Origin: a virus
Virus record (IMG/VR): IMGVR_UViG_3300005288_000003
Location: 33,841 to 97,840 of that record
Length of the DNA: 64,000 nucleotides
Reading direction: 5' to 3' (one strand)
Both the position numbers and the translations under genes were made by a program. The number at the start of each line of letters is the position of its first letter. Position 1 is the stretch's first letter. Below are positions 19,226 through 33,874 of this stretch, piece after piece. The notes beneath the pieces were generated by a model. It was not told the DNA's origin, did not search any database, and saw nothing but the letters and a program-made list of their open reading frames with translations.

Positions 19226-19275
19226 TTTGATTTCCTTGAGTTGAGTGTGCCGTGATGGCAAATTGTAGAAACGAG

Positions 19276-19296
19276 AAAACCCACGCGAGGTGGGTT
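19276..19296 (-). terminator. Terminator closing the tRNA array
   Basis: AACCCAC-CTCGC-GTGGGTT followed by T-rich tail. Confidence 0.7.
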
Positions 19297-19362
19297 ATCT
19301 TGACAAGACGTATCGGCTAAGGTAGCTCTTGGCTACATGCGAGTGCTCCGATTGTCTATGTT

Positions 19363-19434
19363 TGGAGCAGAATGTCAGAATCGAACTGACCTCATCAGCT
19401 TGGAAGGCTGGGCGCTCACCTTGAGCAATCCTGC
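19363..19434 (-). tRNA. tRNA-Gly(TCC)
   Basis: Acceptor GCAGGAT/ATTCTGC, loop CT-TCC-AA, GTTCGATT, TCCA end. Confidence 0.85.
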
Positions 19435-19788
19435 ATGAATTTCTCTATGACAGTTGGCACAGACCAGAATACACTTATCAACTTCTGCTAGCATCCTTTC
19501 GACGGTAGAGTAGTTGTTGATCAGACTCGATGGTTTGTTCTCTTTAACAGACGGGTCTACATGATGGAACTCCAGAGCCGCACTGCACTTATCGTATCCA
19601 CAGATAGAACAACTATCTCCGAACAGCTCGTACAGAATGCGACGCTTTTCTTCCACAAAAGAACGTCTGTTGTTTTCCTCGCAAGGTATGCACAAAGGTT
19701 TGTACTTTTGCTTACCGGAGGTTTGTTTGCCATTTGTATAGAACTCTGTCAAAGGTTTCACATCGAGGCAGGTTTTACACTGCTTCAT
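19375..19788 (-). CDS. HNH endonuclease with Zn ribbons; 3' end overlaps tRNA-Gly
   Basis: CxxC pairs, LEFHHVDP, CILVCANCHREIH; start MKQCKTC after GAGG. Confidence 0.85.
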   Translation of the reverse strand: MKQCKTCLDVKPLTEFYTNGKQTSGKQKYKPLCIPCEENNRRSFVEEKRRILYELFGDSCSICGYDKCSAALEFHHVDPSVKENKPSSLINNYSTVERMLAEVDKCILVCANCHREIHAGLLKVSAQPSKLMRSVRF

Positions 19789-19812
19789 GTTTACCTCATT
19801 CAGTTTGTAATT

Positions 19813-19889
19813 TGGTGGGGCCGGAACGAATCGAACGTTCGACCTGTGGGGTTTCAAGCCACCGCTCTAACCTACTGAGCTACAACCCC
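19813..19889 (-). tRNA. tRNA-Phe(GAA)
   Basis: Cloverleaf; loop TT-GAA-AC; ACCA end. Confidence 0.85.
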
Positions 19890-19894
19890 TTGTG

Positions 19895-19970
19895 TGGAGC
19901 CATCTATGGGAGTTGAACCCATCTATTACTGGTTTGCAATCAGCACCCTAGCCGCTCAGGCAAGATGGAC
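19895..19970 (-). tRNA. tRNA-Cys(GCA)
   Basis: Loop TT-GCA-AA; U discriminator; CCA. Confidence 0.85.
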
Positions 19971-19976
19971 ATAATT

Positions 19977-20053
19977 TGGTGGATACAGGTGGGGATCGAA
20001 CCCACGACATCCGCATTGCAAGTGCGGCGCTCTCCCATCTGAGCTACTGACCC
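19977..20053 (-). tRNA. tRNA-Ala(TGC)
   Basis: CCGCA-CT-TGC-AA-TGCGG; G3:U70; bulged acceptor stem. Confidence 0.9.
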
Positions 20054-20060
20054 ATGTGTT

Positions 20061-20134
20061 TGGGGTGACGCAGAGATTCGAACTCTTTCAACCGGGTCAC
20101 AACCGGAAGTCTCAGCCAGAGAGAACGACGCCAC
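20061..20134 (-). tRNA. tRNA-His(GTG)
   Basis: CCGG-TT-GTG-AC-CCGG; C discriminator; CCA. Confidence 0.85.
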
Positions 20135-20136
20135 AG

Positions 20137-20248
20137 TCAAGCGTGTTGCTTATCGCGTTTGCTGCCGCTTTCTCCCAGCGATACCCGAAGGCTTGATAGG
20201 ACGGTACGATGTCTGCCCTCACTGCACGAATGCTTTCGGGTATAACAC
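20137..20248 (-). ncRNA. Putative structured RNA in tRNA spacer
   Basis: ATACCCGAAAGC/GCCTTCGGGTAT stem, GTGTT/AACAC closing stem, extra hairpins; no ORF. Confidence 0.45.
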
Positions 20249-20262
20249 CTTTTCAACAAAAT

Positions 20263-20324
20263 TGGGTGCAGGACCGGGAGTGCATGCCCGAATTTCCCAA
20301 CCGTCTCCTTGACAGTTGCCTACA
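20263..20324 (-). ncRNA. tRNA-like mini-RNA lacking a D-arm and anticodon loop
   Basis: TGTAGG/CCTGCA-C-CCA, T-like arm TCGGG/CCCGG, one 8-bp hairpin with AAGGA loop. Confidence 0.55.
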
Positions 20325-20328
20325 TAAT

Positions 20329-20402
20329 TGGTCAGGGTGGAAGGTAACGCTCCTTCTTCTCAGGATTCCAAATCCAGCACATCACTTTAATGCTTCACCG
20401 AG
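20329..20402 (-). tRNA. tRNA-Pro(TGG), atypical T-loop
   Basis: Loop TT-TGG-AA; T-loop AGCGTTA; ACCA. Confidence 0.75.
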
Positions 20403-20407
20403 ATAAA

Positions 20408-20533
20408 TCATTTCGTGATTCGAATACCGAACCACCAGAAGTCGATCCTTACGGACCAACGAGAATCGTTTTGTCCAAAGCCAACTCGCACCATACGGTT
20501 GTTGGGTTCCATTTGCACTTTATTGAATCTCAT
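20408..20533 (-). CDS. Small hypothetical protein (41 aa) inside the tRNA array
   Basis: AGGAG RBS; MRFNKVQMEPNNRMVRVGFG. Confidence 0.55.
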   Translation of the reverse strand: MRFNKVQMEPNNRMVRVGFGQNDSRWSVRIDFWWFGIRITK

Positions 20534-20552
20534 TTCATACTCCTGTTTAAAT

Positions 20553-20637
20553 TGGTGGTTGTTCAAGGACTCGAACCTTGGATGTATCATTGTGCCGGGT
20601 TACAGCCGGTTCTCTTCGCCGCTAGAGTAAAACAACC
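20553..20637 (-). tRNA. tRNA-Tyr(GTA)
   Basis: CCGG-CT-GTA-AC-CCGG; long variable region; ACCA. Confidence 0.9.
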
Positions 20638-20645
20638 ATTTAAAT

Positions 20646-20722
20646 TGGCAGGCAATAGAGGACTCGAACCTCCCATCTGCTGGTTAACAGCCAGCGACCC
20701 ACGCCCGGTGAGATCATTGCCT
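20646..20722 (-). tRNA. tRNA-Asn(GTT)
   Basis: GCTGG-CT-GTT-AA-CCAGC; GCCA. Confidence 0.9.
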
Positions 20723-20729
20723 AGAAATC

Positions 20730-20799
20730 TTCCACGTATGTTTTGGCTCGCCGTGGAACGAGGGGCCGAGATTTTTATTCCGCTTCGGACGCAGAGCGG
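20730..20799 (-). ncRNA. Two tandem H-type pseudoknots
   Basis: CCGCT/AGCGG + CCGA/TCGG; CTCG/CGAG + TTCCACG/CGTGGAA; A-rich linkers. Confidence 0.5.
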
Positions 20800-20823
20800 T
20801 ACAGTGGGGAGCAACCCAGTGTT

Positions 20824-20904
20824 TGGTTGCGAAGGGTGGAATCGAACCACTTGCGTCCGGTTATGAGCCGGTTGACACTTGCCTTGCGTCTTAGCGCCCT
20901 CGCA
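20824..20904 (-). tRNA. tRNA-Met/Ile2(CAT)
   Basis: CCGG-CT-CAT-AA-CCGG; enlarged D region; ACCA. Confidence 0.8.
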
Positions 20905-20910
20905 TTTGTT

Positions 20911-20986
20911 TGGTTGCCGGAGCAGGGCTTGAACCTGCGACCTACCGCTTATCAAGCAGTTGCTCTACCAACTGAGCTATCCGGCA
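20911..20986 (-). tRNA. tRNA-Ile(GAT)
   Basis: Canonical cloverleaf; loop TT-GAT-AA. Confidence 0.95.
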
Positions 20987-20992
20987 TTAAAT

Positions 20993-21066
20993 TGGTGCCC
21001 CATCACGGAATCGAACCGCATTCTCAACGTTACAAAGGTCATGTAATACCAATATACTAAAAGGGC
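20993..21066 (-). tRNA. tRNA-Thr(TGT)
   Basis: Loop TT-TGT-AA; ACCA. Confidence 0.85.
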
Positions 21067-21070
21067 ATGT

Positions 21071-21207
21071 AGCCCCTTACGAGGGCCATGCGGGCGTAGT
21101 TGCATCATGCTTGAGCCTTACCACAGGCCCACTTTACCGCGTTGATGTTTGCGGGATAAGCCTACCGAGATGGCTTTCTCATTGCGACATTTCTGTCCTC
21201 GGGCAAC
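21071..21207 (-). ncRNA. Putative multi-stem structured RNA in tRNA spacer
   Basis: CCGAG/CTCGG enclosing GACA-GAAA-TGTC; CCGC/GCGG; GCCCTC-GTAA-GGGGC; GTTGC/GCAAC. Confidence 0.5.
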
Positions 21208-21211
21208 AAAT

Positions 21212-21286
21212 TGGCGGTTTATAAGGGAGTTGAACCCTTCCCTCTGGCGTGACAGGCCAGTGTACTAACCGATATACTAATAGACC
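21212..21286 (-). tRNA. tRNA-Asp(GTC)
   Basis: CTGGC-CT-GTC-AC-GCCAG; GCCA. Confidence 0.9.
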
Positions 21287-21290
21287 AAAT

Positions 21291-21367
21291 TGGTACTCTG
21301 CCGGGGACTCGAACCCCGTTCATGAGGGTGAAAACCTCATATCCTAAACCGCGTAGACGAGCAGAGC
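21291..21367 (-). tRNA. tRNA-Glu(TTC)
   Basis: TGAGG-TT-TTC-AC-CCTCA. Confidence 0.9.
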
Positions 21368-21377
21368 ATTTGTTTCT

Positions 21378-21503
21378 TTACTTGGCAGAAGGTGGTTTAC
21401 CCGGCTTGCCTTTGTTCGGATGACGACCTTTAGGGTCTTTGCGAGAAGCCTTGTCAACCGGAGCGTGTTCTTTTGTAGCATCGTAATACTTCGACATCTT
21501 CAT
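21378..21503 (-). CDS. Small basic protein (~40 aa) inside the tRNA array
   Basis: AAGGAG RBS; MKMSKYYDATKEHAPVDKASRKDPKGRHPNKGKPGKPPSAK. Confidence 0.55.
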   Translation of the reverse strand: MKMSKYYDATKEHAPVDKASRKDPKGRHPNKGKPGKPPSAK

Positions 21504-21522
21504 TTCTCCTTTGTTTTGAATT

Positions 21523-21598
21523 TGGTACAGATGATAGGATTCGAACCTATCTGGTACGCCTTCGTAGGGCGCTGCCTATCCAATCGAGCCACACCTGT
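21523..21598 (-). tRNA. tRNA-Arg(ACG)
   Basis: GCGCC-CT-ACG-AA-GGCGT. Confidence 0.9.
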
Positions 21599-21620
21599 AT
21601 ATCTTGTTGCTATAAGGAGG

Positions 21621-21648
21621 ATTCTACACGACATTTGCACAATGTCAA
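21621..21648 (-). promoter_or_regulatory. sigma70 promoter inside the tRNA array
   Basis: TTGACA-N16-TAGAAT with AT-rich upstream element. Confidence 0.75.
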
Positions 21649-21662
21649 GCGTTTATTTAAAA

Positions 21663-22113
21663 TTATTTTAGATTGTGATCAAATTCCCAATGGCAGTTCG
21701 GACAAAGAAGCATCAGGTTACTGCGGGCATTGATCACACTCAGCATCGTATCGTCAGGGAAGTCAGCCACTGCTCTGATATGTGCAACCTCTACGTGCTT
21801 ATCATATCCACACTTTTGACATAAAAACAGGCTCAGCAGCTACAGAGGCTCTTGCTCGACTGCGAACTAAAGCATAGGCGGAAGACCTATGATGTTTCTC
21901 GTAGATAGCTTCTGCAAGCGTCATATCCTTCACGATGTGAGCACTATGTTCATCACAGACAGTTCTTCGACCGCTTACAGGGATTGAACATACTTTACAC
22001 GCTCTTTGTACTCTGGCTCTCTTCGGCGTCTTGTTCGTCACTGTTGTGGCACAAGTCCTACTGCAATATTTTCTATTCTTTGTGGGCGTTCCACAATTTC
22101 CGCAATCGATCAT
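21663..22113 (-). pseudogene. HNH endonuclease split by a +1 frameshift
   Basis: Removing one T from GTTTTTA (~21822-21828) restores LCQKCGYDKHVEVAHI...NLMLLCPNCHWEFDHNLK. Confidence 0.75.
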
Positions 22114-22126
22114 GATGCTCCTTATT

Positions 22127-22201
22127 TGGTAGACCTGCTTGGGATCAAACCAAGACTAACTCTTTAGAAGAGAGTTGTGCGATTCACTACACTACAAGTC
22201 C
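22127..22201 (-). tRNA. tRNA-Arg(TCT)
   Basis: ACTCT-CT-TCT-AA-AGAGT; T-loop TTTGATC. Confidence 0.85.
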
Positions 22202-22223
22202 AGAAGGCTCCTGCACATCCACT

Positions 22224-22346
22224 GTACCAATCCAGCATGCTGCTATCACAATCAAGACCCTTAATTCGAGGACGACATTTATAGCACGCAGTCGTCTGTG
22301 CGTCAACACCCTGAGTTGGTTTCAGAGTCATACCAAGGCGCGGTAC
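22224..22346 (-). ncRNA. Pseudoknot-containing structured RNA
   Basis: ACGCA/TGCGT + GACGAC/GTCGTC; TTGGT/ACCAA + ACTCTGA/TCAGGGT; GTACC/GGTAC closing. Confidence 0.5.
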
Positions 22347-22349
22347 GTT

Positions 22350-22425
22350 TGGAAGAGGATACTGGAATCGAACCAGTCTAAACGGAGTCAAAGTCCGGTG
22401 CCTAACGCCAATCGGCCAACCCTCA
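22350..22425 (-). tRNA. tRNA-Gln(TTG)
   Basis: CGGA-CT-TTG-AC-TCCG. Confidence 0.9.
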
Positions 22426-22480
22426 ATTAAATAGTACCGGCCATCAGGAAAGACATGGCCATGCCCTCCATCCGACCTAG

Positions 22481-22563
22481 TTGACTTCCTCTGTATTCTT
22501 TGTAGGCTCCAATACCCAGTATCACCTGCCGGGGCTCGAACCCGGTATACAGTTACTCATCAA
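22481..22563 (-). ncRNA. Circularly permuted tRNA-like RNA (YrlA/Y-RNA-like)
   Basis: T-arm CCGGG-TTCGAGC-CCCGG lies 5' of a short hairpin and a D-like arm; all closed by CTGTAT/ATACAG. Confidence 0.55.
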
Positions 22564-22567
22564 TGTT

Positions 22568-22654
22568 TGGTGCCCCCAGTCGGACTCGAACCGACACGCA
22601 TATTTCAGCCACAGGGTCTAAGCCTGCTACGTCTACCAATTCCATCACAGGGAC
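22568..22654 (-). tRNA. tRNA-Leu(TAG)
   Basis: GCAGG-CT-TAG-AC-CCTGT; variable arm. Confidence 0.9.
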
Positions 22655-22668
22655 GTGATATTTCAATT

Positions 22669-22742
22669 TGGTGCTTCTTGATGGAATCGAACCACCGTAG
22701 CCACCGTGTAAGGATGGCGTTCTACCATTAAACTAAAGAAGC
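22669..22742 (-). tRNA. tRNA-Val(TAC)
   Basis: CCATC-CT-TAC-AC-GGTGG. Confidence 0.9.
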
Positions 22743-22743
22743 T

Positions 22744-22828
22744 TGGTCGGGATAGTGAGACTCGAACTCACATGGCCGAAGCCCACAGGGTTTGAACCTG
22801 CTGCGAATACCAGTTCCGCCACATCCCG
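22744..22828 (-). tRNA. tRNA-Leu(CAA)
   Basis: GCAGG-TT-CAA-AC-CCTGT; variable arm GGC-TTCG-GCC. Confidence 0.9.
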
Positions 22829-22834
22829 TTTATT

Positions 22835-22923
22835 TGGAGGCTAGTGTGAGATTCGAACTCACGAGCCGTTTCCGACTGTCGGTTTTCAAGACCGGTGCTT
22901 TTTATCCACTCAGCCAACTAGCC
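22835..22923 (-). tRNA. tRNA-Ser(TGA)
   Basis: CGGT-CT-TGA-AA-ACCG; long variable arm. Confidence 0.9.
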
Positions 22924-22929
22924 ATGTTT

Positions 22930-23019
22930 TGGTAGCGGATGTAGGATTCGAACCTACGGGGCCATTTCTGACCCGACGCTTTAGCAAAGCGTTAGATTAA
23001 GCCACTCTCTCAATCCGCT
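22930..23019 (-). tRNA. tRNA-Ser(GCT)
   Basis: ACGCT-TT-GCT-AA-AGCGT; long variable arm. Confidence 0.9.
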
Positions 23020-23026
23020 ATAAATT

Positions 23027-23103
23027 TGGTCGGACGCCTCGGACTTGAACCGAGTAAGGCCGGATTAAAAGTCCGGTGCCGGGACCACTTTAGCTTGCGT
23101 CCA
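23027..23103 (-). tRNA. tRNA-Lys(TTT)
   Basis: CCGGA-CT-TTT-AA-TCCGG. Confidence 0.9.
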
Positions 23104-33573: not shown

Positions 33574-33874
33574 GCATGACGCTTATCTGTACACAGACGA
33601 AGGTGAATACCTTTGGACAGAGGGTCGGATGGCTTACGCCTATCGGGCTTGCCTACGGGACACAGCGGCTGCGATGGGCACAGGTAATGACGTTGTTGTC
33701 TCGAACGTGTTCCCGACCAGCCGTTCCATGCGGAACTACCGCAAGCTAGCAGAGAAATACGGCTATGCCGTGGCATATGTCGTCGTCGAGAATCGCCGTG
33801 GCGGAATGAACATACACAATGTCCCTCAAGAAGCTCTTGACGGAATGCGTGCATCGTTTCAGGTGGAACTATGA
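33473..33874 (+). CDS. P-loop kinase (polynucleotide kinase-like)
   Basis: LIRGLPGSGKST; VVSNVF; HNVP. Confidence 0.85.
   Translation: MNVSKLYLIRGLPGSGKSTLAAELATALGVPHYEHDAYLYTDEGEYLWTEGRMAYAYRACLRDTAAAMGTGNDVVVSNVFPTSRSMRNYRKLAEKYGYAVAYVVVENRRGGMNIHNVPQEALDGMRASFQVEL

Follow-up and report, generated by a model that had tools for sequence, protein, structure and literature searches.

In a 64,000-nucleotide (nt) stretch of a viral genome (IMG/VR record IMGVR_UViG_3300005288_000003, positions 33,841 to 97,840; hereafter the window), an array of 22 transfer RNA (tRNA) genes appears to harbor several structured RNAs that are not tRNAs. Covariation across related phages argues that two of these, which we call E7 and E2, represent well-supported RNA families that are new in the tRNA arrays of Otagovirus-like phages, and that there are probably more. 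The source is a phage genome of 97.8 kb, complete and carrying direct terminal repeats. Its tRNA region resembles those of the Otagovirus-like Pseudomonas phages phiPsa374, VCM, PPSC2, M5.1, UAVern, ventosus and Bitten. No close relative was seen, the best terminase match reaching 87% at the protein level.

The tRNA operon occupies positions 19262..23103 of the window (every feature located below lies, like the operon, on the minus strand), with the tRNA genes themselves spanning 23103-19363. It was delineated with ARAGORN, Rfam, homology and a gene order common to ~17 related arrays from GenBank phages, IMG/VR and metagenomes. The order is Lys, Ser, Ser, Leu, Val, Leu, Gln, Arg(TCT), Arg(ACG), Glu and Asp in the first half, followed by Thr, Ile, Met, Asn, Tyr, Pro, His, Ala, Cys, Phe and Gly in the second. 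Twelve tRNA junctions measure 1-14 nt; the long gaps measure 142, 148, 528, 155, 145, 188, 150, 193 and 378 nt, and the trailer 101 nt. This layout bears out a first-pass annotation of the same DNA, which had most tRNAs less than ~15 nt apart and had singled out seven long spacers without open reading frames (ORFs), here S1 to S7: long gaps are found at those positions, and the ORF list of the window holds no credible ORF in any of the seven. The four long gaps outside the seven spacers are explained by genes, namely two HNH genes and two micro-ORFs.

E7 is a predicted two-domain structured RNA of ~140 nt located between tRNA-Leu(TAG) and tRNA-Gln (22426..22567) and defined by the covariance model R2 and by covariation. 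It fills the whole 142-nt gap (22426-22567), of which S7 (22481-22563) represents the first domain only. R2 retrieved E7 from 11 arrays at E<1e-11, with one copy per genome, and its single match in the 64-kb window lies within the array. Covariation was assessed with five measures and 500 shuffles, and pairing was also compared with that obtained when the partners were slid. Over the 11 E7 sequences, 91.5% of cells are paired versus 33-45% when slid, compensatory changes affect 15 of 23 pairs, and 0/500 shuffles reach the observed value in any of the five measures.

Domain 1 of E7 (alignment A12) is composed of a freely covarying closing stem of 3-4 base pairs (bp), an internal loop, a 6-bp stem and a T-arm-like hairpin. 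The internal loop has AGUA opposite GAA in 7/11 homologues, the other 4/11 being without it, and the T-arm-like hairpin is nearly invariant, its G-C core being fixed in 9-11 of the 11. Downstream of the T-arm the sequence differs between subgroups, and no D-arm is conserved in the same alignment. Domain 2 is a stem around a hairpin in which the sequence is swapped between lineages and the pairing is kept. A scan of genome contigs with the domain-2 pattern was unspecific (at least 120 matches) and uninformative on host homologues; among the 80 loci fetched, none of the pattern matches lay in a Pseudomonas genome and R2 confirmed 0/80.

E2, defined by the covariance model R1 and by covariation, corresponds to spacer S2 and is predicted to form a three-way junction (20150..20261). 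Its closing stem is 7 bp long (UUUUGYUG with CAGCAAA), and each of its two arms takes up inserts that vary; the bases at the junction are conserved, and the 3' tail, ACGCGAU, is invariant. R1 detected E2 in 13 arrays, once in each and always directly after tRNA-Pro or tRNA-Ala; in the 64-kb window it matches one place, again inside the array. Paired cells amount to 94.6%, versus 34-64% when the partners are slid. Nine of the 17 pairs are compensatory; the observed covariation score is reached by 0/500 shuffles and the stricter pair counts by 4-5/500. An independent run of MAFFT and RNAalifold found compensatory changes in 8/17 pairs. A hammerhead-like core in E2 (CUGAAAA) was considered and rejected, as neither the lengths of the junction strands nor a required G agree with it and no Rfam model matches.

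Neither relatedness nor the pipeline accounts for the covariation of E2 and E7, because a coding control shows none: a gap holding a micro-ORF, taken from the same 11 phages and passed through the same alignment and RNAalifold, gave 6 pairs, 0 compensatory, with near-zero energy. We also searched for known families. Against 4227 Rfam models, at gathering as well as permissive thresholds, the array matches only the tRNA clan and noise (E up to 10), and the arrays of 8 relatives match only tRNAs (E up to 0.01). This excludes catalogued ribozymes, riboswitches, antitoxin RNAs, transfer-messenger RNA, Y RNAs, GOLLD and ROOL as recognizable members. Neither tRNA models nor homology to the tRNAs of relatives revealed a tRNA in E1, E2, E4, E5, E7 or S3 (E1, E4 and E5 are described below). 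With E2 and E7 as queries, blastn against the whole phage collection returned 0 matches at E<0.01, the two sequences being too short and too divergent, so homologues had to be sought by synteny and covariance models.

Three further elements are candidates for the same class. E1 (S1; 19306..19362) is a putative Y-shaped structured trailer directly after the last tRNA, recognized by its conservation and in alignment A6. It is conserved at 66-87% in 13 arrays, whatever tRNA comes last, and in the 11 sequences of A6 96% of cells are paired, versus 34-49% when slid, with 6 compensatory pairs. A metagenome scan by the E1 pattern yielded 15 stretches, of which 2 were real arrays. The intrinsic terminator of the operon, found by a terminator scan at 19278..19296, has a stem with one covarying pair.

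E4, which contains S4, consists of three predicted hairpins between tRNA-Met and tRNA-Asn (20723..20827, 105 nt) and was recognized by its identity to relatives, which is 81-95% to UAVern, ventosus and Bitten, the only 3 phages that share it. Hairpin 1, which has a CUCCCC loop and directly follows tRNA-Met, is found again, on other stem sequences, in most relatives; apart from it, those relatives carry a different, promoter-like element at the site. The last helix of E4 has 3 compensatory pairs, with weak statistics (4 sequences). E5 (S5; 21067..21211), located between tRNA-Asp and tRNA-Thr, is a candidate multi-branch RNA based on a three-copy alignment, being found in only 3 arrays (the window, L012 and L023). 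It includes a hairpin with the conserved loop UGUGGUAA. RNAalifold on the 3 copies finds 8/29 pairs compensatory, all owing to the divergent L023 copy. Positions 21091-21189 are 99% identical over 99 nt to L012:9003-9101, an IMG/VR phage, whereas elsewhere the array is 72-95% identical, which points to recent lateral exchange of E5.

S6 is not one RNA: it is a promoter with two flanking hairpins and two tRNA remnants. A small hairpin directly after tRNA-Gln (22331..22345), with a conserved GCGCCUU loop region, was read from alignment A1 without statistics. It is followed by a hairpin (22309..22327; alignment A14) with an invariant 9-nt loop, AAACCAACU, and a covarying 5-bp stem, in which 5/5 pairs are compensatory and 96% are paired, with 0/500 shuffles reaching this on the covariation score and pair types. 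The AAACCAACU hairpin ends 2 nt before the -35 hexamer of a sigma-70-type promoter, TTGACG-17-TATAAA, with a TG extended -10 (22278..22306), identified by direct reading and by invariant A1 columns. This promoter is invariant in relatives, where it fires ~14 nt upstream of the tRNA-Trp gene that it drives; our consensus scanner did not list it, the -10 having A as its sixth base. The inverted repeat bracketing its -10 shows two compensatory changes.

Such an inverted repeat around the -10 is shared by two unrelated promoter-like sites, its two arms lying in the spacer and at ~+1. One site is in the window (22271-22300), and the other follows tRNA-Met in L012, L016, L004-L006, L009, L027 and L043. 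The arms covary between clades (GACGAC/GUCGUC versus GGAGAC/GUCUCC).

The two remnants in S6 are broken tRNA genes. A 5' part of tRNA-Trp (22237..22261, ~25 nt) matches the intact tRNA-Trp(CCA) genes of six relatives in alignment as far as the anticodon stem, the anticodon and T-arm being lost, and ARAGORN found no tRNA-Trp in the 64-kb window. The first 35 nt of a second tRNA-Arg(TCT) (22202..22236) are 95% identical to L012:8320-8357 (alignment A18); this fragment stops right after the anticodon, and a short motif common to both fuses it to the Trp fragment. The Arg remnant is abutted by a tRNA-Arg(TCT) that is intact but divergent (22201-22127), after which comes a split HNH gene. The remnants were probably left by a deletion together with the insertion of a tRNA-Arg/HNH cassette, which looks to have entered the anticodon region of the old Arg gene.

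S3 (20262..20328, z = -0.94) is a lineage-specific insertion between tRNA-Pro and E2. No similarity to it was found in any related array, and VCM carries an unrelated insertion of the same size at this site. We rejected S3 as a tRNA remnant, as it shows no similarity to any tRNA or relative.

The first-pass annotation had further described the spacers as folding compactly, and folding energy did not bear this out. Relative to dinucleotide shuffles, the z-scores of S1 to S7 are, in order, -1.88, +0.37, -0.94, +0.10, -0.53, -0.93 and -0.86, most spacers thus folding no better than the shuffled controls. Only the S1 trailer plus terminator reaches significance once boundaries are corrected (z = -2.99). 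Applied to T4 RNAs, the same test gave z = -0.83 for rnaD and z = -4.57 for rnaC. A single-sequence folding test is therefore of low power, as the known stable T4 rnaD fails it too. The compensatory pairs found across related phages give a graded answer to the claim of seven structured spacer RNAs: covariation argues strongly for real structure in S7 and S2 and also supports one S6 hairpin, support is moderate for S1 and suggestive for S4 and S5, and it is absent for S3. The idea of a uniform panel of RNAs had to be abandoned, with S6 being a promoter and broken tRNAs and S3 an unconserved insertion.

The remaining features of the array are tRNAs, small genes and promoters. ARAGORN in default mode reports 18 minus-strand tRNAs. 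Rfam adds tRNA-Lys (23030-23103), tRNA-Pro being sub-threshold there, and ARAGORN with relaxed settings reports Lys as well, together with Pro(TGG) at 20402-20329 and His(GTG) at 20135-20062. The tRNA-Met(CAT) gene (20903-20828) was identified by homology to the Met genes of relatives. It has a much enlarged D-arm region (within 20828-20903) and was missed by default ARAGORN and by Rfam; L016 and PPSC2 have kept this form. As a whole the array is a mosaic: identity to any single relative swings between 69% and 99% by segment, from which we conclude that recombination is frequent in the array. Gain and loss of tRNAs in this cluster have been described (PMC9796965).

An HNH homing-endonuclease gene taken from the ORF list (19788-19375) runs into tRNA-Gly; its stop codon lies inside that tRNA (19434-19363), and the same overlap is annotated in M5.1 and KoPa-4. 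The other HNH homing-endonuclease gene (21663..22113; ORF list and motif) is split in two frames (22113-21802 and 21770-21663), with a CPNCH motif in the second piece that was read from the translation and not searched against Pfam. A promoter scan identified a sigma-70 promoter, TTGACA-16-TAGAAT, upstream of tRNA-Arg(ACG) (21621..21648), with 11/12 consensus matches in a region that is 79-93% conserved in relatives. One micro-ORF (21378..21503; protein alignment A16) encodes a basic 41-aa product behind an AGGAG ribosome-binding site, has 17 invariant residues over 8 phages and contains the motif YDATKEHAP...KGRHPNK. A second micro-ORF, also of 41 aa and with a Trp-rich C-terminus (20408..20533; alignment A17), likewise has a ribosome-binding site, 30/41 residues invariant in 3 phages and the motif RIDFWWFG. 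Small peptides in S2, S5, S6 and S7 were rejected: the ORFs extend into tRNAs, and indels between relatives do not keep the frame, not being multiples of three. In the GenBank records of Bitten (L001), VCM (L005) and Psxphi15 (L011), several coding sequences (CDSs) of 30-60 aa in the tRNA arrays, labeled 'hypothetical protein', overlap structured RNAs or tRNAs. These overlapping CDSs are probably miscalls.

We propose that the array would be transcribed as a polycistronic tRNA operon, served by at least two sigma-70 promoters inside it and ended by one terminator, and that this operon would carry several independent families of non-tRNA structured RNA: E7, E2, E1 and probably E4 and E5. The modules would be co-transcribed with the tRNAs. 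They are flush against tRNAs, so tRNA processing should release discrete small RNAs: each module would be freed by RNase P at the tRNA that follows it and by 3' trimming of the tRNA that precedes it, and stem-closed ends would keep the freed RNAs stable, as with T4 RNAC and RNAD. The elements are conserved, hold fixed positions in the array, show compensatory pairing and display conserved unpaired bases. That E7, E2 and the others are real, released RNAs is the account we favor, and we hold it to be probable while leaving considerable room for error. Our best guess is that these RNAs act in trans by binding a protein involved in translation or in tRNA metabolism, because E7 imitates a T-arm and because the loops and junctions that are conserved resemble surfaces for recognition. 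A more specific version holds that there are at least 3-5 unrelated processed RNAs, and that E7, a T-arm mimic with a sarcin-ricin-like clamp, and E2 act on host proteins that handle or cleave tRNAs, as decoys or hijackers that would complement the tRNAs of the phage against tRNA-targeted immunity; this we regard as unlikely.

Several points weigh against released RNAs. In folding energy, E2, E7, E4 and E5 do not surpass shuffles, and the percentages of paired cells are inflated because several of the alignments had been fitted to the structure of the model itself. The changes in E1 mostly split two clades and so amount to few independent events, and 2/5 of the E1 measures are not significant. 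E4 and E5 rest on 3-4 sequences. In addition, the structures might work exclusively in cis, on the precursor.

This last point can be developed into an explanation of its own, which we consider possible though doubtful: the elements would serve the processing or insulation of the tRNA precursor and be degraded after tRNA release, without a function in trans. They might prevent misfolding of their neighbors, position the cuts of RNase E, RNase III or RNase P, or block exonucleases. Such a role would fit the observation that the elements always abut particular tRNAs, with E2 after Pro or Ala, E7 before Gln and E1 after the last, and that E1 lies where a 3' trailer and terminator are expected; the hairpin preceding the S6 promoter likewise sits at the boundary of a transcription unit. 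Insulators, however, need pairing and not sequence, yet AAACCAACU, the T-loop, ACGCGAU and UGUGGUAA are invariant. Most tRNA junctions in the array function with 1-14 nt and no structure, and several relatives are without E4, E5 or E2 at the same junction and have kept the tRNAs. The spacers could also be debris of tRNA-cluster turnover, made of decayed tRNAs and homing scars with inherited structure, as the two truncated tRNA genes in S6, the unconserved S3, the mosaic array and the reported tRNA gain and loss (PMC9796965) would suggest; the T-arm of E7 could itself be tRNA-derived. Against this stand compensatory double changes over 11-13 diverged phages, a signature of selection that the coding control does not show, and E2, which has no tRNA-like sequence and is not scored by the Rfam tRNA model. 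Debris holds only for S6 and S3, and as a general explanation it is very unlikely.

The first-pass annotation had imagined the released RNAs as decoys or regulators directed against host defenses, such as RNA-sensing or RNA-antitoxin systems. Under this reading one could think of a sponge for a tRNA-cleaving nuclease or of an antitoxin-like RNA. Phage tRNAs do counter tRNA-targeting defenses (PMC10264068, PMC11555353), E7 is a T-arm mimic without an anticodon arm or CCA, and the presence or absence of the elements varies among relatives, as is typical for accessory counter-defense genes. No Rfam similarity to a known antitoxin or decoy RNA was found, however, R1 and R2 each match in the window only their one place inside the array, and the evidence does not separate a decoy from any other protein-binding RNA. 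We regard this, too, as very unlikely.

The E2 and E7 families are defined here with boundaries, consensus structures, unpaired conserved bases and variants from 11-13 culturable or sequenced Pseudomonas phages. The question of the T4 species 1 and 2 RNAs thereby gains a tractable system, as phages infecting P. syringae, P. fluorescens and P. putida have been isolated for many of the relatives. By matches to R1 and R2, the isolated phages UAVern, Kremar, M5.1 and Bitten carry both E2 and E7. For annotation, long gaps in phage tRNA arrays should not be filled with spurious small ORFs, as several GenBank records do, and folding energy alone is no ground for dismissing them. The principle itself, put forward as a candidate for novelty in the first-pass annotation, is not new: small stable non-tRNA RNAs in a phage tRNA cluster are already known from T4 RNAC and RNAD, the species 1 and 2 RNAs (PMC3014915, PMC9697503).

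E7 invites comparison with YrlA and the bacterial Y RNAs (RF02553), tRNA-mimicking RNAs that often lie in phage tRNA clusters (Chen et al., 2014, PMC4201824). In YrlA a closing stem formed from both ends encloses a T-arm module, and domain 1 of E7 is similar; the T-arm comes first in the E7 module, and in YrlA the T stem-loop precedes the D stem-loop. The GNCGAA(N)G Ro-binding motif (PMC4201824) was not found by eye in the 5' parts of the 11 E7 homologues (A12). RF02553 matched neither the array (E up to 10) nor the 8 relatives (E up to 0.01), and no Ro60/TROVE gene (PF05731) was detected in the complete 97.8-kb phage genome, the scope of this search, with controls positive. On these results E7 is not a recognizable YrlA: the T-arm fits, but there is neither a model match nor a Ro60/TROVE gene in the phage genome.

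The E. coli RNA 3'ETS-leuZ is a host RNA that sponges Hfq-dependent small RNAs (sRNAs) through a single-stranded seed. Reportedly it is a functional RNA cut from a tRNA precursor and acts in trans, as Lalaouna and colleagues are said to have described in 2015. E1 with the terminator is like 3'ETS-leuZ in being a structured trailer followed by a terminator hairpin; the likeness is one of position and general form.

The closest parallel in layout is T4. Its RNAC and RNAD are small RNAs whose role is not known (PMC3014915) and which were detected on northern blots as late RNAs (PMC9697503). The T4 rnaC and rnaD genes are 119 and 139 nt long, do not encode tRNAs, and lie on the same strand at 1-6 nt from their neighbors. 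Both follow directly after tRNA-Arg, next to the segB homing endonuclease, a layout like that of the present array; E2, E7 and E1 are likewise flush with tRNAs and have no conserved ORF. Homology to rnaC or rnaD, in sequence or in overall structure, was not found: in searches of the T4 region with R1 and R2 (filters off), scores did not exceed ~12 bits, and the only match was a 15-nt T-arm at 11.5 bits. T4 rnaC ends in a T-arm-like hairpin, as E7 carries one, and this is the sole shared feature. Unlike T4, which has two such RNAs at the end of its array, the present phage would have up to five distinct modules spread through it, in a Pseudomonas host and in a phage of a different family.

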